Positions 7,663-57,086 of a stretch of 64,000 nucleotides of DNA are shown piece by piece. Numbering within the stretch: the first letter of the stretch is position 1; every line of letters starts with the position of its first letter. The translations under genes were made by a program, and so were the position numbers. This DNA is from Candidatus Pacearchaeota archaeon (GTDB lineage Archaea > Nanobdellota > Nanobdellia > Pacearchaeales > GW2011-AR1). Under the pieces are notes generated by a model. That model saw only the letters and a program-made list of their open reading frames with translations. It was not told where the DNA came from and ran no database searches. Where the stretch lies: the NCBI GenBank assembly GCA_026414385.1, contig JAOAJC010000001.1:2384-66383 (forward strand), given 5' to 3'.

Positions 7663-7678
7663 TTTTATTGATTAAATA

Positions 7679-8805: not shown

Positions 8806-8806
8806 T

Positions 8807-18660: not shown

Positions 18661-19407
18661 TTATTCCTCTTGTTCTATTCTTGGGGCTAAAACAAAAGAT
18701 AAAAGAACATCGCCTGTTGAGAAGTTTATCCTCATCGGGTGATTGTCAGAGAAATTTATTGCTACTCTTGAAGATATTTTTGCCCCTTTTATGAATTTGT
18801 TTAGATATTCAAGAGAAAATCTTGCCATGCTGTTATCTGAATGAATTTCAACTTCGTCTGATGAGAATTCTATTTTTGCAGAGTTTAAACCCTTTGCTTC
18901 AATTACGAAAGAGGTTGGATTTGCCATAAATGTGCAAGCATCCGACACAATTGAACAATCCTCAATTGCTTCTACAAAAGACATTGAGTCCATTTTTATT
19001 ACAGATTTAAATTCCCATTGAGGCATCTCTTTTTCTTCACCCTCTATGTCTATCAATGCCAGATTGAATTCTCTTCTTATTTTGTCTTGGATACCTAATT
19101 TTAGAAGATTATCTTCACGAGATATTGTTAGAGAAGAACCTTGCAAACATCTTCGCAAGACGTTTTTTAAGTTTTCAAGATTAATGCCAAGAGTTTCGTC
19201 TTTTTCGACTTCAAATTGAGAAAAAAGAGAAGAAGGCATCTTAAAATAAACCATTGCTACATTAGCAGGATCTATTGCAGTTATGCTCATTCCGTCTTTT
19301 TTTATTTTTAACCTAACTTCTGTAACTAATTCTGAAATTATTGAAATAATGTCTGATAATAATCTTGGACTATCTAATTTTAATAACATAATTTTGGATA
19401 ACAACAA
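18661..19407 (-). CDS. pcna: DNA polymerase sliding clamp PCNA
   Basis: 248 aa. N-terminal MLLSKIM...VTEVRLKIKKDGMSITAIDPANVAMV and two-domain layout are typical PCNA. Confidence 0.85.
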   Translation of the reverse strand: MLLSKIMLLKLDSPRLLSDIISIISELVTEVRLKIKKDGMSITAIDPANVAMVYFKMPSSLFSQFEVEKDETLGINLENLKNVLRRCLQGSSLTISREDNLLKLGIQDKIRREFNLALIDIEGEEKEMPQWEFKSVIKMDSMSFVEAIEDCSIVSDACTFMANPTSFVIEAKGLNSAKIEFSSDEVEIHSDNSMARFSLEYLNKFIKGAKISSRVAINFSDNHPMRINFSTGDVLLSFVLAPRIEQEE

Positions 19408-19476
19408 CGACTTTTAAGGTTTGTTGTGATAAAATAGAATAGATAGATTATAAAAGAGAATTATTGTTAATAAAAG

Positions 19477-19490
19477 TGTGAATTTTCACA
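19477..19490. promoter_or_regulatory. Inverted repeat TGTGAA-tt-TTCACA in the divergent pcna/priS promoter region
   Basis: Perfect 6-bp arms with a 2-nt spacer in the 170-nt intergenic region between two divergent replication genes. Confidence 0.3.
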
Positions 19491-19576
19491 ACAAAAATAT
19501 CTAAATTAGAACAGAGTGAAATTTATTATTCTCAAAAAACAATAATTATTATAAGACGGCTAATTAATAAAATGAA

Positions 19577-21112
19577 ATGGGAAAAGAAGAGAGAATAAAG
19601 GCGATAACGCAATTGTATTATTCAAATCCAAAGGTTCTTGAAGCAATGATGATGTTTTCGATTGATAGGGAAGTTATTCCAAGATATTTTGAAATTTTTG
19701 GGAAAAGGCCTGACAAGATTCAATACCCTTCTGACATTCTTGGAATGGTGAAAAAAGGAGCAACCTCTTTTCATGTATCAGAAGAGTTGTGGAATGATGT
19801 TATGGCTTTAAGTTCTGATTTGAAAACGGAAGAGTTAAATGAGTTGAGAAAAGGATGGGATTTATTAATTGATGTAGATTCGCCTTTTCTTGATTTGTCA
19901 AAAATTGCAACAAAGTTATTATTAAATGCTTTAAAAGAACACGGAATTAAAAATTATGGATTAAAATTTTCTGGAAACAAAGGATTCCATATTATTGTTT
20001 CTAACAAGGCTTTTCCAAAAATTTATGATGGGAAGGAAACGAGAAAAATGTTTCCTGACTGGGCAAGAGCTATCTGTGAATATTTAACAAACTACATAAG
20101 AAAGGATTATTATTTGGAGGCAGGCAAAATATTAACAAACAGCGAAATAGAAAAAAACACTGGATTAAAGGAAGAGCCAAACATTATATGTAAAAAGTGT
20201 GGGAAAAAAGCGCGTGTTGGAGATTTGATTAATTTTAAATGTCCGGTGTGTAACATGGAAATATCAAGAAAAGATGTTAAGATAACAAAGAGAAAATTAA
20301 GATGTTTAAACGAAAAATGTGCAGGTTTTTTTGAAATCATAAATGAAAAAAAATATTATTATTGCGAGTATTGTAAAGAGAGGGATAATGAAAAAATGAA
20401 ATTAAATTCTGAAAAAAATCCTGAAAATTTTGAAGAATTAAGAGGAGTTAATGTTGAGAAGATTGCCAAATTAGATTTAGTGCTTGTTTCTCCAAGACAT
20501 TTATTTAGAATGCCATATTCTTTACATGAAAAGACGGCGCTTGCGAGCATTACAATAAAAGAGGAAGATATTGATAAGTTTATGCCGAGAGATGCAAATC
20601 CGTTAAGTGTGAAAATAATAGAGTTTATGCCAAACAATGAAGAAAATGAAGCAAAATATCTTTTGAGCAATGCAATAGAGTGGAAAAAAACGCAAGAAGA
20701 GACAAATGAAAATAGTTGGAAAAAAATTGATGAAAATGAATTTAGAGAGGTTGATTTTAGAAAAATAAAAGAAGAAATGTTTCCAGAATCTATAAAAAAA
20801 TTATTAAGAGGACTAAAAGACGGGAGAAAACGAGGGTTATTTGTATTAATTACTTTTTTGAGGGCGTTGAATTTTCCTGCAGATTATATAAATAAAAGAA
20901 TAAGAGAATGGAATAAATTGAATGACCCACCATTAAAAGAAGGGTATATTAAAGCACAAATTGATTGGCATCTAAAACAAAAGAAGAAAATATTACCACC
21001 CAATTATTCAAATGATGCATTTTATAAAGACATAGGATTAATTAATGAGATTCCTAAATTAAAAAACCCTCTTTCTGAGATTGCAAGAAAATTAAAGGAG
21101 AATAAAAAATAA
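19577..21112 (+). CDS. priS: DNA primase small (catalytic) subunit PriS with tandem Zn-ribbons and a C-terminal PriCT/PriL-CTD-like helical domain (possible fused primase)
   Basis: AEP catalytic motifs (DLLIDVDSPF, KFSGNKGFHIIV), eight Cys in two CxxC...CxxC ribbons, and a C-terminus GRKRGLFVLITFLRALNFPADYINKRIREWNKLNDPPLKEGYI matching the PriCT-1-type pattern. Confidence 0.75.
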   Translation: MGKEERIKAITQLYYSNPKVLEAMMMFSIDREVIPRYFEIFGKRPDKIQYPSDILGMVKKGATSFHVSEELWNDVMALSSDLKTEELNELRKGWDLLIDVDSPFLDLSKIATKLLLNALKEHGIKNYGLKFSGNKGFHIIVSNKAFPKIYDGKETRKMFPDWARAICEYLTNYIRKDYYLEAGKILTNSEIEKNTGLKEEPNIICKKCGKKARVGDLINFKCPVCNMEISRKDVKITKRKLRCLNEKCAGFFEIINEKKYYYCEYCKERDNEKMKLNSEKNPENFEELRGVNVEKIAKLDLVLVSPRHLFRMPYSLHEKTALASITIKEEDIDKFMPRDANPLSVKIIEFMPNNEENEAKYLLSNAIEWKKTQEETNENSWKKIDENEFREVDFRKIKEEMFPESIKKLLRGLKDGRKRGLFVLITFLRALNFPADYINKRIREWNKLNDPPLKEGYIKAQIDWHLKQKKKILPPNYSNDAFYKDIGLINEIPKLKNPLSEIARKLKENKK

Positions 21113-21184
21113 TAAAAAGATTTGGTTAATTTATTAAATTAAAATGATAGGGAATGTTTTTAAAGATGTAAGCTATATAATTTT

Positions 21185-23011
21185 ATGCGTAAAAGAGGAT
21201 ATGTTATCAGCATAATAATTGTTTTTGCAATATTAATGGCAAACTTTTCAATTGCTGCAACTAATGAGAGTGAGGTAGTTAGTGTTGATAAGGCTTATAA
21301 ATGCCTAAATGAGCAAATTAAAAAAGTTGGTTCAAATATCGGATTCCAAGACGCGATTTTTGCACAGCTTGCAATTGGTTCAGTAAAAGAAACAAGAGAA
21401 AAAATTGAGAGCGAAAAAAGTTCTACTGAAAATTGTTGGCCAAAAGCAGGATGTAAGATAAAAGAAACAGCACAGGTAATGTTGGCTTATGATAGGGTAG
21501 GAAAGAGCACTTCTGAAATAAGAAAATGGCTAATGTCAAAAAATGCGAGCGCAAGTGAGTTAATATGGTTTTTAGAAATTGATATAACAAACAAAGAAGT
21601 TTCAACATGTAGTTTGAAATACGATGGAGTTCAATATAGCATAAAAGTAAATGAGGAACAAAAAATATCTGGGAATGCTGGAAATTGTTTTGTAATTGCG
21701 AATAATGGTTATATGTTAAGAGTTAGCAATAATTGTATTGGAAAAGAGTTTGAAATATCTTGCGACAAAGATTTTGTAACAGCTATGATTTATCAATCAA
21801 GTACTGGAAAAACATTATTTATTCCGCCAAAAGCGACAGGCGCATCTGGTGGCGGGACAACAAAAGAAAAAGCTATTTCGCAATGTTTTAAGACAACAGG
21901 AGCAGGGTGCGATTATGAAGGGACATTATGGGCAGTCCTTGCTCTTGAAAAATTGGGCGAGGAGACAGATGCATTTTTACCATACCTTTATGCATTTGCT
22001 GATTCTAATAAAAGATATTTTCCATCTGCATTTTTGTACATGATTACAAGTGGTGAGGACCAATATGATTCTATAATTTCTTTGCAAAAACAAGGAAAAT
22101 ATTGGGAAATTGCGGGAAGTCCTTATAATAAATATTATGATAGCGCACTGGCGTTAATGGCATTAAGCAAAACGACATCGCAAGAGGCAGAAAACGCAAA
22201 AGCAAATTTATTAACAATACAAACTCCTGATGGGTGTTGGAATAATAACAATATAAGAGATAGCGGATTTATATTATATGCAGGGTTTACGAAGAGTGTT
22301 GGGAGAGAGGGTGGAGGAGAGGTTCCAAAATGCACTGCACCATTTTCATGTACAGGTTTATTTGATTGTGAAAAAGCTGGTGGGACAAGACAATATAATT
22401 ATGATTGTTCATCAGAGGGGGCTACAAAGATATGCTGTTCAATAAGTGTTGTTGAAGAAACTTGTAGTAAAAAGGGAGGGGTGTTATGTGGTGCAAATGA
22501 ACAATGCACTGGTAGAACAGAACCGTCAAAAGATGGAAGTTGTTGTATGAGTGGTTTTTGTGAAGAAATCCCGGTTGTAGAGGACTTGTGTAGTAAAGCG
22601 GGAGGGACGTGTAAATTTGTGTGTGAGGAAGGGGAAGAAAAAAGTAGCGAAACATGCGCAAACACAGAAGAAGTTTGTTGTGTTAAAAAAGGAACAAGCA
22701 TTTGGTTTTGGATTGTATTACTAATAATATTAATTGCACTAACAATAGTCGGGATTGTTTATAGAAATCAGCTAAGATTATTTTGGTTTAAAATTTGGCC
22801 AAAAATAAAAGAGAAATTCATGGGAAAGAAAGTTGAGAGTAAAGCTATGCCTACAACGCAACCAACAACAAAAGCCCCTATTATGACGCCACAAAGAATG
22901 ATGCCAAGGCCAGCTTATCCAATATCGCAAAGAAGTCCGGGAATAGCAAAATCTTCAAAGGAAAAAGAAATAGAAGAAACATTAAGAAAACTAAAAGAGA
23001 TGGGAAAATAA
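21185..23011 (+). CDS. Secreted membrane-anchored surface protein with a toroid-like domain and three Cys-rich modules
   Basis: N-terminal signal/TM. The N-terminal alpha-repeat domain has a QW-like motif (LLTIQTPDGCWNNN). Three tandem Cys-rich modules (C..GG..C......CC) precede a single TM (IWFWIVLLIILIALTIVGIVY) and a basic/Pro-rich cytoplasmic tail. Confidence 0.6.
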   Translation: MRKRGYVISIIIVFAILMANFSIAATNESEVVSVDKAYKCLNEQIKKVGSNIGFQDAIFAQLAIGSVKETREKIESEKSSTENCWPKAGCKIKETAQVMLAYDRVGKSTSEIRKWLMSKNASASELIWFLEIDITNKEVSTCSLKYDGVQYSIKVNEEQKISGNAGNCFVIANNGYMLRVSNNCIGKEFEISCDKDFVTAMIYQSSTGKTLFIPPKATGASGGGTTKEKAISQCFKTTGAGCDYEGTLWAVLALEKLGEETDAFLPYLYAFADSNKRYFPSAFLYMITSGEDQYDSIISLQKQGKYWEIAGSPYNKYYDSALALMALSKTTSQEAENAKANLLTIQTPDGCWNNNNIRDSGFILYAGFTKSVGREGGGEVPKCTAPFSCTGLFDCEKAGGTRQYNYDCSSEGATKICCSISVVEETCSKKGGVLCGANEQCTGRTEPSKDGSCCMSGFCEEIPVVEDLCSKAGGTCKFVCEEGEEKSSETCANTEEVCCVKKGTSIWFWIVLLIILIALTIVGIVYRNQLRLFWFKIWPKIKEKFMGKKVESKAMPTTQPTTKAPIMTPQRMMPRPAYPISQRSPGIAKSSKEKEIEETLRKLKEMGK

Positions 23012-23063
23012 ATTGAGAGAACATAAAAGATAATAATAAAAAGGTTAAAAATTAATTAATTTT

Positions 23064-23996
23064 ATGAAAAAGATTGTGCTTTTAGTATTTTTTGTTTTTC
23101 TATCTAGCAGTGTGTTCGCCATAAGCGTTGATATAAAAAATAATTATTTACCAAGGCAAACAGTTATAGCGAAGATATCTGGTGAGGTTTTAGATATTTT
23201 AACAAAAGATAATATTCAATTCAGGAGAGGACATGTTGCGATTCCATTAGAACATGATTTAAAAAAAATAGGGGAAGAGTATTATATTTGGTTTATAACT
23301 CCATTTTTAGAGAACAACTATACGATTATAATAAAAAATATTGCTACAACTGTTGGCGGTTTTGTGAAAAGAATAGATTATGAAAAAAATTTCTCTGTGA
23401 TTGGAAATGCGAGCTATTCAATAAAGCCAGGTTTTGTTTATGCGACAAAAGATTTTGAAATAGCAGTGTTATTATATGAAGATGAAAGAAAGCAAATAAA
23501 AGTTAATTTTTTAGATGAACAGGAGATTGTTTTAAAGCCAGGAAATAATTTATTAAAATTTTCAATAGGAAGCATAAATGAGAGTGGATTTTATAACTTG
23601 ACAATAGGAGAGTATAATGTTCCAGCATACATAATTCCAAACAAGACATTTTATAAAAAGATAAATGAAACAAATGTTACGGCAAAAAACATCATTATTG
23701 AATATGAAATTAAAAATAAGACAAAAATAAACGAGACAAAAAAATTTGAAGTGTATTGTTATGAATATCCTGGGAAAATATGTGGAAATGAAGAAATTTG
23801 TGATGGTGAGACAAGAGAAACAATTGACGGATTTTGTTGTATTGGAACATGTAAGGGAAAAGAAAAGCAAAGTTCTGCATTATGGGGGTATTTATTAATT
23901 ATTGTTGTGGTTGCAATTTTAGGATATATTGGATGGAAATATTATAAAACAAAAGAAGAAAGAAAAAATATATTGCAAAAAAATGTGGCAAAATAA
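23064..23996 (+). CDS. Secreted surface protein with a Cys-rich juxtamembrane module and C-terminal TM anchor
   Basis: Signal peptide MKKIVLLVFFVFLSSSVFA. Module CYEYPGKICGNEEICDGETRETIDGFCCIGTCKG aligns with the modules of the upstream gene, then a TM and a KKTKEERKN tail. Confidence 0.55.
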   Translation: MKKIVLLVFFVFLSSSVFAISVDIKNNYLPRQTVIAKISGEVLDILTKDNIQFRRGHVAIPLEHDLKKIGEEYYIWFITPFLENNYTIIIKNIATTVGGFVKRIDYEKNFSVIGNASYSIKPGFVYATKDFEIAVLLYEDERKQIKVNFLDEQEIVLKPGNNLLKFSIGSINESGFYNLTIGEYNVPAYIIPNKTFYKKINETNVTAKNIIIEYEIKNKTKINETKKFEVYCYEYPGKICGNEEICDGETRETIDGFCCIGTCKGKEKQSSALWGYLLIIVVVAILGYIGWKYYKTKEERKNILQKNVAK

Positions 23997-24000
23997 AGAA

Positions 24001-24519
24001 TTAATCTTTTTTTGTTTTTGATTTTTTTTCAGGTTGTTGATTTTTGGCTTCGTTTTTTTGAGTTTCTTTGTTAATTTCTTCTTCAAGAGAAGGTTTTTTA
24101 AACAAATGAGGAGCATATTTTTTAAGCTCATTTAGAGCGATGTTTCTCTCGACAATTATTTTTTTTGTTATTGCGTCATAATCATGAAGTCTTGCGATAA
24201 GTTTATTTCCCAACTCGTTTAATTCTGCATTAGAAAGTTCGATTTTTTCTGGGGATATTAGTTCGACATTTGCAGGCATGTATGCAAACAATATTCCAAA
24301 AAAAGAAGACAAGGAGTCAAGCTCGAGAGAAACTTCTGCAAAAGAAGTAAACAAATCTTTCTTGTTTTCAATCTCTTTTGCTTCGTGTATTTTTTGACTT
24401 ATGATTTTAACTCCTTTTTCTTTGCTTAATCTTTCTATTAGTTGTTCAAGCGCGGTTTTTATGTAATCTTTAGGTCTTCCTAATATTTCAAGAACAATAT
24501 CAACTTGAAGGTTTTTCAT
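24001..24519 (-). CDS. Hypothetical protein with an acidic/lysine-rich tail
   Basis: 172 aa ORF in a clean gap. No recognisable motif. Confidence 0.4.
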   Translation of the reverse strand: MKNLQVDIVLEILGRPKDYIKTALEQLIERLSKEKGVKIISQKIHEAKEIENKKDLFTSFAEVSLELDSLSSFFGILFAYMPANVELISPEKIELSNAELNELGNKLIARLHDYDAITKKIIVERNIALNELKKYAPHLFKKPSLEEEINKETQKNEAKNQQPEKKSKTKKD

Positions 24520-24544
24520 AAATATATGCTATTAAAGTTGGCTT

Positions 24545-25225
24545 TTAAATCCTTCTCAAAATGAGATAAATAAGAATTAAAACAAAAATAATCAAAAATG
24601 CGTAAAAAAAATAAAACCACAATTTTAGTTTGTGGGTTGTTTGAGTATTTGTTTTTTTATTGAGATGGATTTTTTCGTTGCTTTTCGGTTGTTCTTCGTC
24701 TATTTTTTTTGGCATCTCTTCTTTTAGTGGAACGAAATCAGAAATAGAAGTTGTTAATTTTGGTGATTCGGATTTGGAAAAAGAATCTAATGATTGAGTT
24801 GGGGAGGAATTTGTTGTTTTTGATTCTTGTTTTTTTTCATTTGGTAAAATTGTTATCGGATTGCAAACTTCTGAAAAAGAGGAAGAGTTTGTTTTTCTTA
24901 ATCTCGCACAAATATTTGTTGCTCCGACATAATATGATTTAATCTTAAACTCTTTTGTTTTTGGAAAAACTTCTTTTAGATAATAGAATGGGTTGTTCCA
25001 TTTACCATCATAATAGATTTCGGAAAATTCTTTTGAATCATCATTTATAAATATTTTAACATCATAATTATTTGTTATAGAGGAAGATGTTGAAATAGAA
25101 ACAGAAAAGCTTTCATTAACGATTGATGATGATGGAGATATAAATTGAAATTCTAATGAAGATGATAGATTAATGGAAATTATCAAAATAATTAAATAAA
25201 GAACATTAATAACCATAGCTTTCAT
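24545..25225 (-). CDS. Ser/Thr-rich secreted protein with N-terminal signal and C-terminal TM anchor
   Basis: Start refined to MKAMVINVLYLIILIISINL (signal). Ser-rich ectodomain and a C-terminal TM LWFYFFYAFLIIFVLILIYLIL. Immediately downstream of the nuclease gene on the same strand. Confidence 0.45.
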   Translation of the reverse strand: MKAMVINVLYLIILIISINLSSSLEFQFISPSSSIVNESFSVSISTSSSITNNYDVKIFINDDSKEFSEIYYDGKWNNPFYYLKEVFPKTKEFKIKSYYVGATNICARLRKTNSSSFSEVCNPITILPNEKKQESKTTNSSPTQSLDSFSKSESPKLTTSISDFVPLKEEMPKKIDEEQPKSNEKIHLNKKTNTQTTHKLKLWFYFFYAFLIIFVLILIYLILRRI

Positions 25226-25952
25226 AGTGAGCAATTCCTCCGTTGTTATCAAATAGATATAAGCTATCCCTATCATTATTCCATATGTCAGTTTTTGAAT
25301 TCCAAAAAATATCTGTTGAATTATCTTTACCTATATTAGAATGGAGAGTAATTTTTGAAAAACTAATGTTTTTGAATGAATAGATCTTTCTACTCTCGTC
25401 CTTTATTGTAAAGCCAGTCATTGAAATGTTGCAATTGTTTATTATTATTATTTTTTCTTCTTTCGGGTTTATGTCTGTGCTAAAACAATTATAATAAATA
25501 GAAGGTTTCCATATTCCCAAATGATTTTTAATTGCGTTTTTTTCTGCATTTGAAAATAATTTTAGCTCTGATTCTTGAACAAGAAATTTTGATGCAAGGC
25601 CAAGTTCAACAATCCTTAAATTTAAGTATTCGGGAACATAAATTCTTGCAAGATATCTGTTATATTTATCTATGTCAATTATTTCTATATTGACTGACTT
25701 ATTTTCATAAGATTTAAGAAAACCTATTGCTAAATTTGATATTTGTAGATTTTTTTCTGGGGAGTTGATATTAATGAGACGGATTGTTCTATTATCTTCT
25801 AAAATTAGAGTATCGCCATCAATAACTCTTGAAATTACCACACTTTCTATTTTTTTATTTTTTTCGGAAATTAGAAGTGAAGAAAGGTGAAAAAGTGCAA
25901 AAACAAATAAAGTTATAAAAAATGCTAATAAAAAAGCGTATTTTTTATTCAT
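25206..25952 (-). CDS. Membrane-anchored extracellular thermonuclease (staphylococcal nuclease fold) fused to a lamin-tail domain (LTD)
   Basis: N-terminal TM anchor. SNase motifs VIDGDTLILEDNRTIRLININSPE, DKYNRYLARIY and KNHLGIWKP. C-terminal region ...IINNCNISMTGFTIKD...IWNNDRDSLYLFDNNGGIAHYESYGY fits the LTD pattern (W-N-N-x-G-D...L.D..G..VD...Y). Confidence 0.7.
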   Translation of the reverse strand: MNKKYAFLLAFFITLFVFALFHLSSLLISEKNKKIESVVISRVIDGDTLILEDNRTIRLININSPEKNLQISNLAIGFLKSYENKSVNIEIIDIDKYNRYLARIYVPEYLNLRIVELGLASKFLVQESELKLFSNAEKNAIKNHLGIWKPSIYYNCFSTDINPKEEKIIIINNCNISMTGFTIKDESRKIYSFKNISFSKITLHSNIGKDNSTDIFWNSKTDIWNNDRDSLYLFDNNGGIAHYESYGY

Positions 25953-25958
25953 TGTAAA

Positions 25959-26426
25959 TCAAATTATTTCTATCTTGCATTTTAAGGATGAGATAAATTT
26001 TTTAAGATTATTATTATCTAAAACGATTGTTTCTGTGTTTATGTTTGGATGAAATCCAATCAAATCTGACTCAATAACTTCTTTGTCAATGAAAAGCGTT
26101 ACGGAAGAAGAATAAATCATACCAAACAAAGAAACAGAACCAGGTGTTAAATTTATTTGTTGTTTTAATTCTTCTGGAGAAGCGAATTGTAGTTTTTTGC
26201 TGGCTATTCTTTTTTTTAAGGATTTTATATCTAATCTTTTTTTCCCAGGCATGCAAACTAAATAAAATTTACCTTTATCGTCTTTTAAAAAAAGGCTTTT
26301 TGTTCTCAATCCCGGAATGTTTTTTATTATCTTTGATGACTCTTCTACTGAAAAAACTGGTGGATGTGAGTATAATTCATATTTTATATCATATTTGGTT
26401 AGGTAATTTTTTAGATTCTCGTCCAT
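25959..26426 (-). CDS. YbaK/ProX-type aminoacyl-tRNA deacylase (trans-editing domain)
   Basis: 155 aa. KYELYSHPPVFSVEES...GSVSLFG matches the YbaK/ProX editing-domain family. Confidence 0.6.
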   Translation of the reverse strand: MDENLKNYLTKYDIKYELYSHPPVFSVEESSKIIKNIPGLRTKSLFLKDDKGKFYLVCMPGKKRLDIKSLKKRIASKKLQFASPEELKQQINLTPGSVSLFGMIYSSSVTLFIDKEVIESDLIGFHPNINTETIVLDNNNLKKFISSLKCKIEII

Positions 26427-26516
26427 TAGATAACTGAAAAAATAGGGTTAATATAATTTTAGATTTTAATTTGTGGATAAAGCAAATTTAATAAACTCAA
26501 GAAAACAGATAGAGGT

Positions 26517-27449
26517 ATGGTAAAAGAATATGATTTTATTATCATTGGAGCAGGGGTTGCGGGTTTGTCTGCTGCGATGTATGCTGGTAGATTAGGACTC
26601 AAAACATTATGTCTTGGTGCAAGTTCTGTTGAAGAGAAAGCAATTGGCGGCATAATAACAACAACAGATGATATTGAAAATTTTCCAGGATACATAAAAA
26701 TTTCAGGAGTGGAATTAGCTGAGAAAATAGAAAAACACGCCAGAGAATACAATGTTGAAATAAAAGAAGAAAGAGTTGAAAAAATTGTAAAAAAAGAAAA
26801 AAAATTTATTATAAAAACTAAAAAAAATGATTATGTTGCGAAAACAATATTAATCGCGACAGGAACTGAGAGAAGAAAATTAGAAGCAAAAAATGCTGAT
26901 AAATTTGAGAGAAAAGGTGTTGTATATTGTGCATTGTGTGACGCAGGATTATTTAAAGATAAAATCGTGGCAATTGTTGGTGGTTCAAATGCTGCTGCCA
27001 AAGATGCGTTGCTCTTGGCAAATAAAGCAAAAAAAGTTTATATTATTTACAGAAAAGAAAAATTGAGGGCAGAGGAAGATTATAGGAAAAAAGTAGAGGC
27101 AAATCAAAAGATAGAGATAATAAACAATGCAACGATTTTAGAGATTAGTGGAAAAGAAAAAGTTGAAGAGCTTGTTTTAGATAGGGAATATAAAGGAAGC
27201 AATAAATTAAAAGTTGATGGGGTTTTTGTTGCAATTGGGGGGAATGCAGCTTCTGAAATTGCGATTGAGTTGGGATTAGAATTAAATGAGAAAAATGAGA
27301 TAATAACAAACAAAAATTGTGAGACAAACATTGGTGGAGTTTATGCAGCAGGAGATGTAACTGATAGGGAATGGAAACAAGCGATAACTGCTGTTGCAGA
27401 GGGATGTATCGCGGCTTATTCTGCATTTAGATATTTAAGTAAAAGATAG
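26517..27449 (+). CDS. trxB: Thioredoxin-disulfide reductase
   Basis: FAD motif DFIIIGAGVAGLSAAMYAGR, redox-active CALCDAG, and NADPH motif GGSNAAAKDALLLA. Confidence 0.85.
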   Translation: MVKEYDFIIIGAGVAGLSAAMYAGRLGLKTLCLGASSVEEKAIGGIITTTDDIENFPGYIKISGVELAEKIEKHAREYNVEIKEERVEKIVKKEKKFIIKTKKNDYVAKTILIATGTERRKLEAKNADKFERKGVVYCALCDAGLFKDKIVAIVGGSNAAAKDALLLANKAKKVYIIYRKEKLRAEEDYRKKVEANQKIEIINNATILEISGKEKVEELVLDREYKGSNKLKVDGVFVAIGGNAASEIAIELGLELNEKNEIITNKNCETNIGGVYAAGDVTDREWKQAITAVAEGCIAAYSAFRYLSKR

Positions 27450-27525
27450 AACATTAATAGAGTATGATTTAATTGAGATTTTCTAACTTAATAAGGTTTT
27501 TAAAGTTCATATAAGTAATAAAATA

Positions 27526-27981
27526 ATGAAAAGAATTGCTAAAAGAGGGTTGTCGCCAATTATTGCGACAACATTGTTAATCTCGCTTGTGGTTATATTA
27601 TCAACAGTAATATTCATATGGGCGAGATCTTATTTTGGAGAGCAAATAACAAAGTTTGGTGGGCCTATTGAAGATTCGTGTAAAAATGTTGATTTCAGCG
27701 TAAGTTTTTCTGGGGGGATTTTAAGCATTGCAAATAATGGAAATGTTCCGATTTATGGAGTTAAGATATATGAAGAAGGAACTTTTGGAACAAATGATTT
27801 GGGAGATATAACAACCAAGGTTATTTTTCCTGGAAAAACAGGAGAGATGAGAGCAAATATGATTAATAATAACAATGTTAATAAAATTGTCGTTGTTCCA
27901 ATTTTGTTAGGAGTTATTGAAGAAAAAGAAGAGACAAAAGCATTTGCTTGTGATATTAATTATGGCAAAAACATAGGATAG
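27526..27981 (+). CDS. Archaeal type IV pilin (PF07790-like N-terminus, class III signal peptide)
   Basis: MKRIAKRGLSPIIATTLLISLVVILSTVIFIW matches the [KR]G-x-SP[IV][IV]AT-x-L[LI] archaeal pilin N-terminus. Confidence 0.75.
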   Translation: MKRIAKRGLSPIIATTLLISLVVILSTVIFIWARSYFGEQITKFGGPIEDSCKNVDFSVSFSGGILSIANNGNVPIYGVKIYEEGTFGTNDLGDITTKVIFPGKTGEMRANMINNNNVNKIVVVPILLGVIEEKEETKAFACDINYGKNIG

Positions 27982-27985
27982 AACA

Positions 27986-28525
27986 ATGGACAAAAAAAGA
28001 GGCATGTCGCCTATTGTTGCCACGGTTTTGATTGTTATGTTAACTATTGCAGGTGTTGCAGCAATTGCGAGCTTTGTTATTCCATTTATTAAAAAAAATT
28101 TGGAAAGTGGAAGTGAGTGTAAAGATTATGAAGATTATTTTGTTTTTGACGAGAGTTATAGATATAATTGCTATACTGGTAGCGGAAACAACACGGTTTA
28201 TGGATTTTCTGTAAAAGCGAAAGCTGATACAAAATCTTATCAAAATTTGAAAGGTTTTGTTATTGTGTTAAGAGCAAATGACGGAACATCAAAGAGCTAT
28301 GAAATAGTAAATGGTAGTCAGGCAGGGGAGATAAAAACCTGTGGAAAAACAAAAGTTGAATTGCCATATTCTGGTGGAATAAAAACATATGGATTTCGGA
28401 AAGAAAACATAGTTTCTGCAATAATCCAAACAAAACTTAAATCAGGAAAAATCTGTAAAGAAGCAGATAAAATAGATTTTTATAGGTGCGAATATTCAAT
28501 TGGAGAGACGCTGAAAACATGCTAG
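27986..28525 (+). CDS. Archaeal type IV pilin (PF07790-like N-terminus)
   Basis: MDKKRGMSPIVATVLIVMLTIAGVAAIASFVIPFI is the same class III signal motif. Confidence 0.75.
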   Translation: MDKKRGMSPIVATVLIVMLTIAGVAAIASFVIPFIKKNLESGSECKDYEDYFVFDESYRYNCYTGSGNNTVYGFSVKAKADTKSYQNLKGFVIVLRANDGTSKSYEIVNGSQAGEIKTCGKTKVELPYSGGIKTYGFRKENIVSAIIQTKLKSGKICKEADKIDFYRCEYSIGETLKTC

Positions 28526-29046
28526 TAAAAAAAGGACAGGTTTGGCTTGAAACGGTTTTATACACTTTAATAGGGCTTGTATTAATTGGAATGGTTCTTG
28601 CGTTTGTTATGCCAAAAATTAATGAGGTAAGAGATAGGGCGCTTGTTGAGCAAGCAATATCAACATTTAGTTTGTTGGACGAGAAAATAAATGAAGTTTT
28701 ACAAAAAGGAGCGGGAAATACGAGGAAAATTGATTTTATAATGAAAAAAGGCGAACTCTATTTTAATATGAGTAATGATGAAATTGTTTTTGTGATAAAA
28801 GAATTATCAAAACCATATTCAGAACCTGGAATAGAAATAGAACGAGGAAATATGAAAATATTGAGTTTGCAAAAAGCAAAAACAAATGAAGTGTATTTAA
28901 AATTGAAATATGACTCAAATCTAACATATTCTGGCAGCGATAACTTAAAAAAATTGACTTCTGCATCAACTCCTTATAAGATTTTTATTGAAAATAAAGG
29001 TGTTGTTGGGGAAAGAGAGTGGATAAACATAGAAGAGGTTTCTTAA
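28519..29046 (+). CDS. Pilin-like protein with class III signal and Glu at +5
   Basis: Start refined to the overlapping ATG (ATGCTAG) giving MLVKKGQVWLETVLYTLIGLVLIGMVLAFV. KKG then QVWLE places a Glu five residues after the predicted cleavage site. Confidence 0.55.
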   Translation: MLVKKGQVWLETVLYTLIGLVLIGMVLAFVMPKINEVRDRALVEQAISTFSLLDEKINEVLQKGAGNTRKIDFIMKKGELYFNMSNDEIVFVIKELSKPYSEPGIEIERGNMKILSLQKAKTNEVYLKLKYDSNLTYSGSDNLKKLTSASTPYKIFIENKGVVGEREWINIEEVS

Positions 29047-29101
29047 TAAAAAAAGATAGGTTTAAATAAATCTTTTCTCTGATTAGTAGTAATAAAAAAA
29101 G

Positions 29102-30625
29102 ATGGTTCAAAAGATAAATTTAAATCCTGCAATTCCAAAGCTTCAAAAATTTGAAGATAAAAAAAAGATAGATGTTAGATATGCCCTTATTTCCCCATAT
29201 GCATTCGCGCATATCTATTGGAGAGAGGACATAGGCGAGGTAGTTTATGAGATTGAAGAACCGGTATTAAATGAAAAGGAAAGAGCTTCTCTTGAAAAAT
29301 TAGAAAATGCAATGCTTGAACTGATAAACATAAATGTGGCTGTTGAAAAAACATTGGAAGCGACAACAGAATATATTGATAAAACAGCAAAATTACTTAT
29401 TGCAGAACTTAATTTAAATATTAGTGATGAAACTTACGAAAAATTGTTTTATTATTTGTTTAGAAACTTTATAGGGCTAAATGAGATTGAACCATTATTG
29501 AGAGATTATTATATTGAAGATATTGAGTGTAACGGGGTGAATACCCCGGTTTATGTCGTGCATAGGGTTTTTAGAAATTTAAGAACAAATTTGACTTTTA
29601 AAGACATGGATAAAGCAGCGAGCTTTGTAGAGAAGCTTGCGCAGAGATGCGGAAGATATATTTCTTATGCACAACCATTGCTCGATGGAACATTGCCTGA
29701 TGGTTCAAGAGTAAATGCAACATATACAAAAGAGATAACTTCAAAAGGGCCAACATTTACAATAAGAAAATTTACGAAAATACCTTGGACTCCAACGCAA
29801 TTAATAGCATTTAATACGATGAGTGCTGAAATGGCTGCGTATTTTTGGATTCTTATCCAATATAAATCGAGTATTGTTGTTGCGGGAGGAACTGGTTCGG
29901 GAAAAACTACTTTCTTAAATGCGATGGCTTTTTTTATTCCGCCAGAGGCAAGAGTAGTCAGCATAGAAGATACGAGAGAAATAAACTTACCAAGAGAAAA
30001 TTGGTTACCTTCTGTTGCGAGGCCATCAATTGGGGTTGGAAAGGTTGGCGAAATTGATTTGTTTGAATTATTAAAAAGTTCATTTAGACAAAATCCAGAT
30101 TATATTATTGTGGGAGAAGTGAGGGGGAAAGAAGCATTTGTGCTTTTTCAAGGAATGGCTTCTGGACATGCTTCTTTGAGTACAATGCACGCAGATTCTG
30201 TTGAAACAATGGTTAGAAGATTAGAAACTCCGCCAATAGAACTCTCTCCAACATTAGTAAATACACTTGATTGTGTTGCTGTTGCTGCGAAAGCATTGAT
30301 AGGGCAGCAAGAGTCAAGAAAAATAAGAGAAGTTTCTGAAATTGTTGAAGTTAATAAAGATGGCAGTGTTATAATAAATACCCCTTTAATTTGGGATCCG
30401 AAAACAGACAAATTTCTTTTTAGAAAAGAGAGCAAAGTATTTGAAAAAATAGCAGGAAGATTTGGAATGACTATTGATAATTTGTACAAAGAATTCACGA
30501 TAAGAACAAAATTACTTTACGAATTAGCAAGAAGAAAAGTGTTTGGATTTGAAGAGATACAAAGAATAATAAACGATTATTATAAAAATCCTGCAGAAGT
30601 GTTAAGTAGATATGGAATAGGTTAA
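29102..30625 (+). CDS. Type IV pilus/secretion assembly ATPase (FlaI/TadA/PilB family)
   Basis: Walker A VAGGTGSGKTTFLNAM, Asp box, Walker B DYIIVGEVRGKEA, and His box GHASLSTMHADS. Confidence 0.85.
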   Translation: MVQKINLNPAIPKLQKFEDKKKIDVRYALISPYAFAHIYWREDIGEVVYEIEEPVLNEKERASLEKLENAMLELININVAVEKTLEATTEYIDKTAKLLIAELNLNISDETYEKLFYYLFRNFIGLNEIEPLLRDYYIEDIECNGVNTPVYVVHRVFRNLRTNLTFKDMDKAASFVEKLAQRCGRYISYAQPLLDGTLPDGSRVNATYTKEITSKGPTFTIRKFTKIPWTPTQLIAFNTMSAEMAAYFWILIQYKSSIVVAGGTGSGKTTFLNAMAFFIPPEARVVSIEDTREINLPRENWLPSVARPSIGVGKVGEIDLFELLKSSFRQNPDYIIVGEVRGKEAFVLFQGMASGHASLSTMHADSVETMVRRLETPPIELSPTLVNTLDCVAVAAKALIGQQESRKIREVSEIVEVNKDGSVIINTPLIWDPKTDKFLFRKESKVFEKIAGRFGMTIDNLYKEFTIRTKLLYELARRKVFGFEEIQRIINDYYKNPAEVLSRYGIG

Positions 30626-30687
30626 AATGTGAAAATTTCTTAAGCCATATTGATTAAATTTAATAAGATTGAAAAATAAATATAATT

Positions 30688-30849
30688 ATGAAAAAAGAGG
30701 ACATTAATTTAATTGCCAGAGTATTGACGGACATGAAAGATTCTTTAACTGAAATTGAAAATGCGTTGAAAAATAAAGACATTGGAAAATTAAATGAAGC
30801 AAAATCAAAGATTTTGAGGTTGCAAATAGAGATAGATAAAAGAATATGA
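30688..30849 (+). CDS. Small coiled-coil ORF (53 aa) between the ATPase and the membrane platform gene
   Basis: MKKEDINLIARVLTDMKDSLTEIENALKNKDIGKLNEAKSKILRLQIEIDKRI, with a stop codon overlapping the next ATG (ATGA). Below the ORF-track size cutoff. Confidence 0.3.
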   Translation: MKKEDINLIARVLTDMKDSLTEIENALKNKDIGKLNEAKSKILRLQIEIDKRI

Positions 30850-32138
30850 TAACCCAAATAGAACAACTAAAAAAGAACATAGATGGTGAAATAAAGATAT
30901 TAGGAGAGATTTCTAATTTATTTGTTAGGTTTGAAAATAGCACTGGAGAAGAAAGAAGAATAATTCTTAGTACAATTGATTCACTATCTAAAAATATGAA
31001 GATGATAAACCGAGCGATTCCAAAAATTCTTGAGAGTATTGTCATTGAGGAAAGAAAAGAAAAGAAAGAAGACAAACTTGAGAGAATAGAAGAAGGAATT
31101 GCGGAGGGGGTTGTTTTGAAACTAGAGGACAAGGAAAAATTCTTAACAGAATTAAACATAAATGAAGAGTTTATTAAAAAATTAAAGAAAAAGAAAAGTG
31201 AGGGTGAAGAAAAATATGAAGAATTCAAAAAAGCAAGAGGTTATTTGAAACTTGCAAATAGGTTTTTTTTAGAAAGTTCTATTAGTATGGTAAAGAAAGG
31301 ATATTTCAGTGATTTATACAATGATTTAAAAAAATCAAATTTAAACATTCTTCTTGAAGGATATGTTGCGATGATGCTTTTAACAAGCGTTATTGCGTTT
31401 TGTTTGGGGGTTTTTTTGTTTGTTTTTTTTATGTTATTTGATATTAGTTTTTCGATGCCTTTAATAAGTGCCTATAAAGGCGGGTTTTTTCCGAGATTTT
31501 CAAAAATAATATGGCTACCTTTAATTATGCCATTGATAACTTTTATAGCACTCTATATTTACCCATCAACAGAGGCAAAATCAATTGAAAAAAATATAAA
31601 CGAAGAATTACCATTTGCTGTGGTGCATATGAGTTCTATATCAGGTTCTGGGATAGCGCCTGTGGAAATTTTCAAAATTATTGGGAATAGCAAAGATTAC
31701 CCATATCTAAAAAGAGAGTTAAGAAAAGTGTTAAACCAAATCAACATATATGGATATGATTTAGTTAGCGCATTAAATAATGTCTCAAAAAGTACACCAA
31801 GTGCAAAATTAAGTGCCTTGATGGCTGGATTATCAACTACAATAAATACTGGTGGAAATTTGAGCGATTTTTTTCAGAAAAGAGCTGATTCATTGCTATT
31901 AGAGTACAAGTTAGATAAGGAAAAATTCATAAAAGTTGCAGAGACATTTATGGACATTTACATAAGCGTCGTAATTGCTGCACCAATGATAATTATGTTG
32001 TTGTTAATAATGATATCAATATCGGGATTACAAACAGGATTCTCGCCATATCAATTAACATTCATCACAATAGCAGGAGTAGCTTTTGTTAATATTATAT
32101 TTTTAGCATTTTTACAAACAAAGAAAGGAATTGCATAA
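30846..32138 (+). CDS. Pilus assembly membrane protein, FlaJ/TadC-like, N-terminal half (T2SS-F domain)
   Basis: Cytoplasmic coiled-coil N-terminus, then TM helices and a T2SSF-like domain (ELPFAVVHMSSISGSGIAPVEIFKIIG...LSALMAGLSTTINTGGNLSDFF). Confidence 0.7.
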   Translation: MITQIEQLKKNIDGEIKILGEISNLFVRFENSTGEERRIILSTIDSLSKNMKMINRAIPKILESIVIEERKEKKEDKLERIEEGIAEGVVLKLEDKEKFLTELNINEEFIKKLKKKKSEGEEKYEEFKKARGYLKLANRFFLESSISMVKKGYFSDLYNDLKKSNLNILLEGYVAMMLLTSVIAFCLGVFLFVFFMLFDISFSMPLISAYKGGFFPRFSKIIWLPLIMPLITFIALYIYPSTEAKSIEKNINEELPFAVVHMSSISGSGIAPVEIFKIIGNSKDYPYLKRELRKVLNQINIYGYDLVSALNNVSKSTPSAKLSALMAGLSTTINTGGNLSDFFQKRADSLLLEYKLDKEKFIKVAETFMDIYISVVIAAPMIIMLLLIMISISGLQTGFSPYQLTFITIAGVAFVNIIFLAFLQTKKGIA

Positions 32139-32986
32139 TGAAAATAAATAGAACAAAATTGCTTGGAATTATAGCAGGAATAATTGTGATAGTTGTTGAT
32201 TTAATATTTTTCTTTGGTGAAAAAGCATTTATGTTTATCATCGGCATAGCAATTGTTGTAGCATTAACACCTTTTATAATTGAAATAGTAAGGGAGGGAA
32301 AAAGGGCAGAGGATATCGAAGAGAAATTTCTTGAATTTTCAAGAAATCTTGCAGAAAGCGTAATGACTGGAACTCCGATAAGTAAAAGTATTGTGAATAT
32401 ATCAAAAAAGAATTATGGTGCTTTGACTCCCCACGTGCAGAAATTATCAAATCAAATTCAATTAGGAATACCATTAAGTAAGGCATTGCAAATATTTGCA
32501 AATGATATTGATAATGTTGTTATAACTAGAGCAATAGCACTAATAAGTGAGGCTGAAAAAGCTGGTGGAGAAATTGATTATATTCTCGATTCTGTTGCTA
32601 AATCAATTGCAGAAACAGAAAAACTAAAAAAAGAAAGAAAATCTGCAATATTTAATCTTGTAATGCAAGGATATATTATATTCTTTATATTTATAGGAAT
32701 AATGCTCGTAATGGAGTTTAAAATATTGCCACTTGCGACAGGAATTGGTGGGGGGGGCATTTCTGGAGTAGAAATTGGTGGAATGATACCTGTTGGAGGA
32801 CAAACAATGAATCCTGAAGAGATATCAAATTTATTCTTATACTTGCTTTTAACACAAGGATTTTTTGCAGGATTGACTATTGGAAAATTGAGCGAGGGTT
32901 CTATAAAAGCTGGGATTAAACACTCGTTTATACTTGTTATTGCAGCATTTTTAATATCAACGGGAGTAAGAGCTTTGTTTGTTTAA
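32138..32986 (+). CDS. Pilus assembly membrane protein, FlaJ/TadC-like, C-terminal half (second T2SS-F domain)
   Basis: TAATG overlap with the upstream half. TM, then T2SSF-like IEEKFLEFSRNLAESVMTGTPISKSI...LISEAEKAGGEIDYILDSVA, then TMs. Confidence 0.65.
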   Translation: MKINRTKLLGIIAGIIVIVVDLIFFFGEKAFMFIIGIAIVVALTPFIIEIVREGKRAEDIEEKFLEFSRNLAESVMTGTPISKSIVNISKKNYGALTPHVQKLSNQIQLGIPLSKALQIFANDIDNVVITRAIALISEAEKAGGEIDYILDSVAKSIAETEKLKKERKSAIFNLVMQGYIIFFIFIGIMLVMEFKILPLATGIGGGGISGVEIGGMIPVGGQTMNPEEISNLFLYLLLTQGFFAGLTIGKLSEGSIKAGIKHSFILVIAAFLISTGVRALFV

Positions 32987-33046: not shown

Positions 33047-33745
33047 ATGAAAAAGAGAGGGGCGAGCAATATAGAGTTTATACTTGCATTTGTATTGTTT
33101 GTCGGATTTGTAGCAACGATTTTTTATTTTTTTAATCCTATTAGAAATGTTAATTATATGGAATCATCTTTAAACTATGTTATTGGAGCGATAGAGAAAA
33201 ATGTAACTAGTGAGATTGATGAAGTTGGGATATTAATTAAAGGTTCAAGTTCGGGGGGCAATATTGCAAAGGTTAAGATAAAAGACATTTCAAATGATAA
33301 AAAAGTTGATGCAAGAGATTATTATGGATTTCGATTTGATGCAAAAAGAAATGGTGAAGAAGTTTATATTGATTTAAAAAATAGAGGAACAAATAACAAT
33401 TTTATAATATTTAGGTTTAATGAGGAATTTAATGAGGAAACAATTTCTAGTGGCCAAGAAAGAGAATATACAATATCAACAAAAGATTCAAGAAAAATTG
33501 TTTCTGAAAAAAAAATAAAGCAATTAAGCGAGAGATACGCAAATAATTATTTAAAATTGAAAGAAGAACTAAAAATTCCTGCGAACATTGATTTTTCATT
33601 TTCGTTAGAATTGCAAGACAGAAAAATAGAAGTAACAAAAGATATTCCTGCAAGAGCAGAAGTATTTGCAAAGGGAAAATTAATTGAAGTATTAAAAGAA
33701 AATGAGGTGACTGAAACCGGATATTTAACAATAAGAATATGGTAA
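33047..33745 (+). CDS. Pilin-like/minor pilin protein (class III signal, Glu+5)
   Basis: MKKRGASNIEFILAFVLFVGFVATIFYFF. If cleaved after RG, Glu is at +5. Confidence 0.5.
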   Translation: MKKRGASNIEFILAFVLFVGFVATIFYFFNPIRNVNYMESSLNYVIGAIEKNVTSEIDEVGILIKGSSSGGNIAKVKIKDISNDKKVDARDYYGFRFDAKRNGEEVYIDLKNRGTNNNFIIFRFNEEFNEETISSGQEREYTISTKDSRKIVSEKKIKQLSERYANNYLKLKEELKIPANIDFSFSLELQDRKIEVTKDIPARAEVFAKGKLIEVLKENEVTETGYLTIRIW

Positions 33746-34167
33746 ATAAAAAAGGAATAGTTAGAATAATTGAAGCCAGTGTTGCAATATTAATTATATT
33801 GTCTGTAGTATTAGTGGTTTCTGAAAGAAAAAAATTGCAAATTGAGAGCGATTTAAGTGAGAGAATAACTCCATTGTTAGAAGAAATAGCAAAAAATGGG
33901 AGTATGAGAGAAGCGATAATAAGAGATAATGAAACGAATAATGATGCTGAAAATCTTGTTATGGATTTTTTGAAACAAAGAATAAAAGAGACATTTATAG
34001 GTTATAATGTAACAATATGTAACTATACTCTTGTTTGTGGATTAAGAACATATCCAACAGAAGCAAAAGGCAACATTTATTCTGGAGAGAGAGTGATTAG
34101 CACAACATTAGAAAATAGACAGTTCAATCCAAAAAAAATAAAGATTTTCTTATGGATTAAAAGATAA
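33739..34167 (+). CDS. Pilin-like protein (class III signal)
   Basis: MVNKKGIVRIIEASVAILIILSVVLVV. Confidence 0.45.
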   Translation: MVNKKGIVRIIEASVAILIILSVVLVVSERKKLQIESDLSERITPLLEEIAKNGSMREAIIRDNETNNDAENLVMDFLKQRIKETFIGYNVTICNYTLVCGLRTYPTEAKGNIYSGERVISTTLENRQFNPKKIKIFLWIKR

Positions 34168-34299
34168 AACTGGTTTGCAATAGATTAAATTAAAAAATTT
34201 TGCATAAAATAGAATAACTTAAATCTTATGTTTGGGCGCGCATTTGTATAGATTAAGGAGTACAGGTAATTTTATAAACTCCATTTCTTTAAAAAAGAT

Positions 34300-35907: not shown

Positions 35908-35949
35908 AGGAATCAGTAATTTTTTAAACATAATTTTATTAATAAAATA

Positions 35950-39706: not shown

Positions 39707-39727
39707 ATAAAACTTTATTAATCCATA

Positions 39728-56347: not shown

Positions 56348-56453
56348 TAATTATTTTTATTAAAATATTATATTTGTTAAGGTTAAATATTAGATAAAGC
56401 GAAGATGTGCGGTTTATAACAGATTTCTTTAAAAATTAAGAATATATAGAAAT

Positions 56454-56687: not shown

Positions 56688-56688
56688 A

Positions 56689-57027: not shown

Positions 57028-57086
57028 AGAGAGTGCGCTAAAAAGTTTGAGCAAAAAGAAAAAAAGAAAAATAAAAATTATGCAGA

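Follow-up and report, generated by a model that had tools for sequence, protein, structure and literature searches.

A predicted surface-exposed SNase-type nuclease with an asparagine-type metal site and an overlapping membrane-anchored partner gene in Pacearchaeota

We examined a stretch of 64,000 nucleotides from a Candidatus Pacearchaeota archaeon (GenBank assembly GCA_026414385.1, contig JAOAJC010000001.1, positions 2,384 to 66,383 of the forward strand), which is referred to below as the window. The subject of this analysis is a gene on its minus strand that encodes a nuclease of the staphylococcal nuclease (SNase) family, together with a partner gene that overlaps its 3' end. The list of open reading frames (ORFs) and the sequence itself give a nuclease of 248 amino acids running from ATG to TAA at 25206..25952. 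An NCBI protein with 100% identity over these 248 amino acids, named 'MAG: thermonuclease family protein [Candidatus Pacearchaeota archaeon]' (MAG stands for metagenome-assembled genome), is encoded on a 76.8-kb contig. The nuclease gene and its parts, including the lamin-tail domain (LTD), are as follows.

25206..25952, minus strand: nuclease gene, 248 amino acids, encoding an N-terminal hydrophobic helix, an SNase domain and an LTD (ORF; identical NCBI protein)
25860..25946, minus strand: N-terminal hydrophobic helix, residues 3-31, a probable signal-anchor, that is, an uncleaved type II membrane anchor (AlphaFold2 helix, hydropathy, charge)
25503..25853, minus strand: SNase catalytic domain (OB-fold thermonuclease), residues 34-150
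25809..25820, minus strand: D45-G-D47-T48, equivalent to SNase D19-G-D21-T22, with D47 as predicted first metal ligand (invariant in 120 of 120 close homologues and in 109 of 109 distant ones, bar one T-to-S change)
25755..25781, minus strand: R58-L-I-N-I-N63-S64-P-E66, equivalent to R35...D40-T41-P-E43, with the catalytic Arg, the position of the second metal ligand and the Glu in the general-base role (alignments)
25764..25766, minus strand: codon AAC for Asn63, in the place of SNase Asp40, a Ca2+ ligand (direct sequence reading)
25656..25667, minus strand: K96-Y97-N-R99, equivalent to K84-Y85-G-R87, holding phosphate-binding residues and the second catalytic Arg (R in 120, Y in 119 and K in 114 of 120 close homologues)
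25209..25490, minus strand: lamin-tail (Ig-like) domain, residues 155-248, with a conserved Cys156/Cys174 pair

The SNase domain is recognized by the Pfam profile PF00565 over residues 56-149 (E 8e-13; 49.2 bits, with the cut-off at 21), and a phmmer search of all PDB sequences aligns thermonuclease chains of S. aureus with residues 34-149 (E ~1e-6). The Pfam LTD profile PF00932 matches residues 175-242 at a sub-threshold score (E 4.3e-5; 24.3 bits, where 34.3 is required), and a match to it is precomputed for most of the 120 close homologues. An AlphaFold2 model made from these 120 homologues has a mean predicted local distance difference test score (pLDDT) of 92 and a predicted template-modelling score of 0.80. 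It consists of an N-terminal helix (residues 3-31), followed by an oligonucleotide-binding (OB) fold domain and then by a C-terminal beta-sandwich. When the model was used as a Foldseek query it retrieved SNase variants with a target-normalised template-modelling score of 0.81, and the domains of Tudor-SN, which are the best-known inactive SNase-like domains, were also among its top structural matches. Fold comparison places the C-terminal domain with the immunoglobulin-like (Ig-like) beta-sandwiches of lamin-tail type, so that an LTD is present by predicted fold. Cys156 and Cys174 of this domain are each found in 87 of 110 representatives; the pair, which may form a disulfide, is compatible with an LTD that lies outside the cytoplasm. 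The protein scores far under the cut-offs of both the NucI and the EcnA equivalog models of NCBIfam. Its profile match, fold and catalytic residues make it an SNase-family protein (PF00565, COG1525), and it is not an equivalog of NucI or EcnA. Both domains are real, far beyond chance, and the domain assignment made in the initial annotation is borne out; the two strings quoted there are likewise present, RLININSPE as residues 58-66 and WNNDRDSLYLFDNNGGIAHYESYGY as the C-terminus.

We mapped the residues of the protein to the numbering of S. aureus SNase by alignment. D19, D21, T22, R35, D40, T41, P42 and E43 correspond to D45, D47, T48, R58, N63, S64, P65 and E66, and D83, K84, Y85 and R87 correspond to D95, K96, Y97 and R99. 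The equivalents of the catalytic and metal-binding residues D21, R35, E43 and R87 are all present, and Asp40 alone is changed, to Asn63. This change had been described initially as a replacement of LLVDTPE by ININSPE, which is correct both by alignment and by the codon. The accompanying statement that the Arg and Tyr residues are conserved holds for the equivalents of Arg35, Arg87 and Tyr85, but not for those of Tyr113 and Tyr115. With D47 kept and Asn63 and Ser64 in the other two positions, the canonical Ca2+ ligand set Asp21/Asp40/Thr41 is incomplete and the strict motif fails. Thr41 of SNase is a backbone ligand to the metal.

Asn at position 40 is widespread among the relatives of this protein. 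It is found in all of the 120 nearest homologues (52-73% identity, nearly all 242-260 amino acids long), in which the equivalents of D19, D21, T22, R35, P42, E43 and R87 are also invariant. When 1.84 billion cluster representatives were searched exhaustively with HMMER, 3,024 of them matched at E <= 1e-3, and for 368 the match was at E <= 1e-10. In the best 150 of the 3,024, position 40 within the motif R-x4-[N/D/E]-x-P-E is N in 117 cases, D in 11 and E in one, and the motif typically reads RLxGIN[AT]PE. In a more distant sample of 109 full-length representatives at ~30-55% identity, 100 are of the N-type and nine of the D-type, and the equivalents of D19, D21, R35, E43 and R87 are 99-100% conserved in both groups. 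The distant representatives with 'GIN' are mostly metagenome proteins according to a cluster look-up, by which one D-type protein comes from Aenigmarchaeota. Asp at position 40 is kept by the Mycoplasma and plant SNase enzymes that we compared. A tblastn search of phage genomes with the SNase domain found only Staphylococcus and Anoxybacillus phage nucleases, at ~30% identity, and did not reach YokF of B. subtilis SPbeta.

Two origins of the substitution can be set aside. Sequencing error as the source of Asn63 is ruled out by the family-wide invariance of the residue, and decay of the nuclease by the conservation of its catalytic residues together with the intermingling of N- and D-types.

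As judged from these alignments, Asn at position 40 is the norm of the family, and most proteins of the wider SNase-LTD clade also have it; it is a selected trait and not a sign of decay. The oddness that the initial annotation implied for it is therefore lost (120 of 120 close homologues; N 117, D 11, E 1 in the best 150). Since N- and D-types intermingle in one clade with otherwise identical active sites, the comparison indicates that the two residues are functionally interchangeable as metal ligands. Asn can serve as a ligand because its side-chain carbonyl is able to coordinate a divalent ion. The invariance of the catalytic constellation over such deep divergence, a mark of purifying selection, argues for an active enzyme. 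Loss of several catalytic residues had been named at the outset as the sign of a non-enzymatic OB-fold binder; the alignments contradict such a loss, with the equivalents of D21, R35, E43 and R87 invariant in the 120 close homologues and ~100% conserved in the 109 distant ones.

In a scan of one genome per GTDB species, at least 167 species-level loci encode a relative of the nuclease. The best 80 of the 167 all come from MAGs whose label is Pacearchaeota, Woesearchaeota, Nanoarchaeota or unclassified archaeon, all of them DPANN archaea, a group of tiny symbionts. The nuclease family is a core, syntenic gene of these DPANN genomes, and the protein of the window is an ordinary member of this large cell-surface nuclease family which automatic annotation had already named correctly.

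The topology of the protein was judged by heuristics, namely hydropathy, charge, length of the uncharged run, inspection of motifs and the AlphaFold2 helix. The N-terminal hydrophobic helix noticed initially is indeed present. The N-terminus (MNKKYAFLLAFFITLFVFALFHLSSLLISEKNKK...) has an n-region with a net charge of +2, followed by an uncharged run of 25 amino acids, and its best 19-residue window has a Kyte-Doolittle hydropathy of 2.38. The N-flank carries a net charge of +1 or +2 in 107 of 120 family members. There is no Cys among the first 40 residues, nor in 15 family N-termini that were inspected; because an N-terminal Cys is missing, the nuclease has no lipobox. These features suggest that the helix most likely stays uncleaved and acts as a type II signal-anchor, the arrangement known from S. 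aureus Nuc2. An alternative is that the same enzyme is released in soluble form after cleavage of a Sec signal peptide. This weighs against anchoring and draws support from 23 of 111 scored family members, in which the uncharged run is interrupted by Asp or Glu and is just 15 residues long, within the range of signal peptides; in addition, S. aureus Nuc is secreted by way of a cleaved signal (PMC3994088). However, the median uncharged run of the family is 24 residues, and AlphaFold2 gives one continuous helix over residues 3-31. Moreover, we found no convincing signal-peptidase motif in the N-terminus of the nuclease, since small-x-small is not consistent across the family, in contrast to the clear ...S-S-A/S | L-E-F site of the partner. 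We consider the soluble form unlikely. The N-terminal sequence points to export of the nuclease whether it is anchored or cleaved.

The partner gene lies immediately downstream of the nuclease gene and begins within it.

24545..25225, minus strand: partner gene, 226 amino acids, with a cleavable-type signal peptide, a beta-sandwich ectodomain with two invariant Cys, a linker, a juxtamembrane motif and a C-terminal transmembrane helix
25206..25225, minus strand: 20-nucleotide overlap that runs from the partner ATG to the nuclease stop codon, the ATG lying within the ...Y-E-S-Y-G-Y* codons (sequence)

The partner is the co-directional, Ser-rich anchored neighbour of the initial annotation, and that description stands. 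Its product consists, in order, of a signal peptide that shows a cleavage motif of small residues (...S-S-A/S | L-E-F), a beta-sandwich (residues 25-128, pLDDT >90) that contains the two invariant Cys, a disordered, low-complexity linker rich in Ser, Thr, Asn and Lys, a conserved juxtamembrane motif, and a transmembrane helix ending with basic residues. The overlap with the nuclease gene is 20 nucleotides in 25 related loci and 11 nucleotides in ten, and all 65 overlapping start calls (64 related loci and the window) are in the same relative frame. This conservation of overlap and frame suggests that the partner is translationally coupled to the nuclease.

The ectodomain of the partner varies between lineages. 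It is a non-LTD beta-sandwich in the type found in the window. In 12 to 13 divergent loci, the gene in the partner position instead encodes a signal peptide and an LTD ('RINEVELNP.G...'), and in one of these (L077) the protein matches the Pfam LTD profile with an E-value of 2.2e-5. The variation can be seen by comparing the window gene with the genes downstream of the nuclease in L007, L009, L061, L066, L070 and L075-L083 (handles refer to 83 related loci, L001-L083). The two types share a homologous C-terminal module of 47 residues, comprising the juxtamembrane motif and the transmembrane helix (...KI.LN.K...T..K.R...Y.F....IIILLALRKL; hhalign probability 98.5%, E 2.5e-15). It follows that the membrane stalk of the partner is orthologous between them and that the ectodomain was exchanged. 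The partner is absent from five of the 83 loci and is thus not indispensable. We also considered a toxin/immunity or inhibitor role for the partner, which was set aside since the protein is exported and membrane-anchored. Nuclease inhibitors such as barstar and NuiA are cytoplasmic.

Taken together, the data are best explained if the nuclease is a catalytically competent, divalent-metal-dependent, sugar-non-specific endo/exonuclease of SNase type that is displayed outside the Pacearchaeal cell, which we regard as probable. The N-terminal helix would route the protein through the Sec pathway and would most likely remain as a type II signal-anchor, with the SNase and Ig-like lamin-tail domains facing outward. 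The metal would be held by Asp47, by the side-chain carbonyl of Asn63 and by the backbone of Ser64. Glu66 would act as the general base that activates the attacking water, while Arg58 and Arg99 would hold the scissile phosphate. Expected products are 3'-phosphorylated mono- and oligonucleotides, released from environmental or host DNA and RNA, which could feed the nucleotide and phosphate needs of the cell. The LTD probably aids in binding the substrate or the cell surface or envelope. The beta-sandwich partner, with its C-terminal anchor and its likely translational coupling, is probably located next to the nuclease at the membrane. Among physiological roles, acquisition of nucleotide and phosphate precursors fits best with what is known of the lineage. 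The initial description of the organism as apparently unable to make nucleotides agrees with the general literature, in which Pacearchaeota and other DPANN archaea are reported to be without de novo nucleotide biosynthesis (PMC11537232, PMC8091004), although some Pacearchaeota are also reported to carry many nucleotide-biosynthesis genes, particularly for pyrimidines (PMC11537232).

Several observations weigh against an active nucleotide-scavenging enzyme. The nucleotide-pocket residues Tyr113 and Tyr115 of SNase are aligned with Leu124 and with a gap, respectively. The strict PROSITE thermonuclease active-site pattern, which ends in D-x-P-E, demands Asp at position 40. Substitutions of Asp40 in the S. 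aureus enzyme, studied by Serpersu, Shortle and Mildvan in the 1980s, reportedly cost about one order of magnitude in both Ca2+ affinity and rate. A literature search on D40N and staphylococcal nuclease found no assayed SNase with Asn at position 40, and one on characterised archaeal thermonucleases yielded only a paper on a plant CAN enzyme and no assay of an N-type protein. In addition, no nucleotidase, nucleoside transporter or ABC importer adjoins the nuclease gene, and the rigid synteny found across the lineage makes the gene neighbourhood little informative on function.

The gene context was drawn from homologues and GTDB loci, of which the 83 were examined. The nuclease and its partner are flanked on the same strand by two genes.

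25959..26426, minus strand: YbaK/tRNA-editing-domain gene, upstream and co-directional, ending 6 nucleotides before the nuclease ATG (Pfam tRNA_edit, E 2.4e-29)
24001..24519, minus strand: MJ0538-like gene, 172 amino acids, downstream and co-directional, without a signal peptide (orthologues PF27325:MJ0538)

The YbaK-like gene is probably co-transcribed with the nuclease without a functional link to it, and is missing between the thioredoxin reductase gene and the nuclease in some loci (for example L002, L004 and L020). Where a locus reaches far enough, the MJ0538-like gene is almost always present downstream of the nuclease; in the window its product has a Lys-rich tail and the gene follows the partner directly. 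The order of genes in the 83 loci is almost invariable. On one strand are T2SSF, the T2SSE ATPase, three pilins and thioredoxin reductase; then, on the opposite strand, YbaK-like, nuclease, partner and MJ0538-like. The first strand then takes over once more, with two Cys-rich surface proteins that are anchored in the membrane and a primase-like gene. About 13 genes (19577-32986 in the window) retain the same order and orientation in nearly all of the 83 loci, which come from different DPANN species, even where the nuclease is only 40-45% identical; for genomes this divergent, such synteny is unusually rigid. A scan for sigma-70 promoters and terminators around the operon gave nothing above shuffled expectation, with a sigma-70 model that is not applicable to archaea. 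Neither the window's ORFs that were scanned with Pfam nor the 83 loci yielded an ABC transporter, the latter being screened only with the neighbouring genes of the window as queries.

The two surface proteins of this block (21185-23011 and 23064-23996, plus strand; 608 and 310 amino acids) have N-terminal signal sequences and Cys-rich modules just before a transmembrane helix near the C-terminus. They match no Pfam family and are syntenic with the nuclease in almost all loci. In L076-L083, which are the most divergent loci, the partner and the MJ0538-like gene are separated by an opposite-strand insert of ~1.5 kb, the content of which was inspected in L077 alone. In that locus, the region 7345-8834 (minus strand) encodes a pilin-like protein of 143 amino acids with a class-III signal and a protein of 356 amino acids with an HEFGH metalloprotease motif.

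The remainder of the window is ordinary core chromosome. Besides the type IV pilus operon it contains genes for ribosomal proteins L2, L3 and L4, PCNA, a primase-like protein, OapB and OapC, the CCA-adding enzyme, aCPSF1/FttA, a proteasome subunit, Rad50 and Mre11, ArgRS and the Lhr helicase, as well as the signal recognition particle (SRP) RNA and one tRNA. Directly downstream of the pilus ATPase and platform genes are four plus-strand ORFs (33047-38649; 232, 142, 535 and 899 amino acids) with no Pfam match at E <= 1e-4, which may be lineage-specific pilus or surface components. OapB and OapC (39314-40123, plus strand) lie in the same window as the PCNA and primase-like genes (18661-21112), and a replication origin may be located near them. 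The best Rfam model for the SRP RNA (50578-50834, minus strand) is 'Bacteria_large_SRP' at 71.4 bits, a lower-scoring overlapping match of the same clan having been suppressed; the success of the bacterial model is probably an effect of clan competition in an AT-rich genome. Finally, a region of ~2.8 kb (56350-59190) contains a single ORF of at least 100 amino acids (56689-57027) and no Rfam match at the gathering threshold.

The neighbourhood raises another explanation, in which the nuclease is the DNA-processing part of a competence-like uptake system where pili capture DNA, the nuclease trims it and the fragments are imported. The type IV pilus operon (27526-32986), which encodes three pilins with class-III signals, a T2SSE ATPase and two T2SSF proteins, is 1.6 kb from the nuclease, a position kept in most of the 83 loci, and for other DPANN archaea there is a proposal that DNA enters by way of pili and is then digested by a nuclease (PMC7414124). 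However, the operon is on the opposite strand, and its adjacency is weak evidence of a functional link because housekeeping genes (thioredoxin reductase, YbaK-like) are interleaved and the whole block is rigid. This rigidity extends to PCNA, primase and ribosomal protein genes, which makes the adjacency unspecific, and no ComEC-like channel was detected in the window. Furthermore, cleavage of the SNase type gives short 3'-phosphorylated products, not long single strands. Taken together, we consider a role in pilus-based uptake improbable.

The nuclease might also serve interaction or conflict, degrading nucleic acids of a host or competitor where symbiont and host are in contact, or remodelling the extracellular DNA (eDNA) of biofilms. 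Surface and secreted SNases of staphylococci and mycoplasmas are known to act on biofilm eDNA and on neutrophil extracellular traps (PMC3994088, PMC12115388). The LTD and the partner ectodomain are Ig-like folds of the adhesion type, and the latter is swapped between lineages, as one might expect of a surface that faces a host or a substrate. However, there is no direct evidence for this role, and a core gene that evolves slowly (52-73% identity across many species) is unlike typical conflict genes. Such a role, which seems distinctly unlikely as the main one, would in any case be compatible with scavenging and does not exclude it. Finally, that the protein is a pseudo-nuclease, an OB-fold/Ig-fold nucleic-acid binder or adhesin with a Ca2+ site that has lost Asp40, is highly improbable: Asn in place of Asp40, the absence of Tyr113 and Tyr115 and the inactive Tudor-SN domains among the top structural matches point that way, but only one metal or catalytic position differs and its Asn carbonyl oxygen can still ligate a metal, D21, R35, E43 and R87 are invariant over hundreds of sequences down to ~30% identity as a mere binder would not need, and D-type and N-type proteins intermingle in the same clade.

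The active, surface-displayed nuclease that we favour resembles several characterised systems. Compared with S. aureus nuclease A (Nuc; PDB 1STN/1STA; PF00565, COG1525), it differs by Asn in place of Asp40 and by the lack of Tyr113 and Tyr115, and it has an additional C-terminal LTD, an anchor-like N-terminus instead of a cleaved signal and propeptide, and an archaeal host. Hvo_1477 of Haloferax volcanii matches PROSITE PS01123, which requires Asp at position 40, where the Pacearchaeal protein has Asn. The two archaeal proteins share the domain order of export signal, SNase and C-terminal LTD (by comparison with Table 5 of PMC3929857). Hvo_1477 is a surface-attached protein that is genetically needed for growth on eDNA (PMC3929857; PMC5118699). 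However, it is a lipobox lipoprotein of 327 amino acids from a free-living haloarchaeon, whereas the nuclease described here lacks a lipobox and any attachment would be by a transmembrane helix. S. aureus Nuc2 is a signal-anchored SNase, a type II protein of the membrane, that is Ca2+-dependent and active on single- and double-stranded DNA (PMC3994088). The likeness would lie in anchoring by an uncleaved N-terminal helix, which is probable for the nuclease; in contrast, Nuc2 is bacterial and has neither an LTD nor an overlapping partner gene.

The membrane SNase nucleases of Mycoplasma (mhp379, MG_186, Mpn133 and MAG_5040) supply nucleic-acid precursors (PMC12115388, PMC3585158) and are likewise surface enzymes of genome-reduced organisms that depend on such precursors from outside. 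They differ in being lipoproteins with a canonical Asp-Asp-Thr metal site and no LTD, and they are often in an operon with an ABC transporter, whereas none adjoins the Pacearchaeal gene. Fusion of an LTD to an extracellular or envelope-associated nuclease is known from Shewanella ExeM and from a nuclease of Izemoplasmatales (PMC8289736). Deletion of the LTD of ExeM lowers in vitro activity without abolishing it, and what the domain contributes is, by that account, not yet settled (PMC6085458). ExeM has a catalytic domain of the endonuclease/exonuclease/phosphatase type with OB folds instead of an SNase domain, and the LTD-bearing bacterial nucleases are much larger proteins that carry the LTD at the N-terminus. 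Given the precedents of Hvo_1477 (PMC3929857) and of the Nuc2 anchor (PMC3994088), as well as the existing annotation of the protein, the novelty that the initial annotation implied for a surface-attached SNase-LTD was overstated.

The enzyme class, its architecture, its attachment to the surface and the logic of scavenging are thus already established in Staphylococcus, Mycoplasma and Haloferax, and the novelty is low. Two aspects are mildly new. The first is the widespread, conserved Asn-for-Asp variant of a metal ligand, which is apparently uncharacterised, and the second is the conserved overlapping partner gene with its swappable ectodomain. A stronger proposal is that the Asn-type metal site defines a large SNase class ('RLxGIN[AT]PE', mostly LTD-fused), possibly with a metal dependence unlike that of the classical Ca2+ enzyme, such as a weaker Ca2+ affinity or the use of Mg2+ or Mn2+, and that the nuclease of Pacearchaeales and its partner form an obligate surface module which is the main nucleotide harvester of these symbionts. 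We regard this as unlikely; if it is true, the exchangeable ectodomain of the partner (LTD or another beta-sandwich) would serve to hold on to the substrate or to the surface of the host. Many biosynthetic pathways are reportedly missing from DPANN archaea such as Pacearchaeota, and their supply of nucleotides has been deduced from genomes only. A core, outward-facing nuclease of SNase type is a sensible candidate for the first step of nucleotide acquisition in these organisms.

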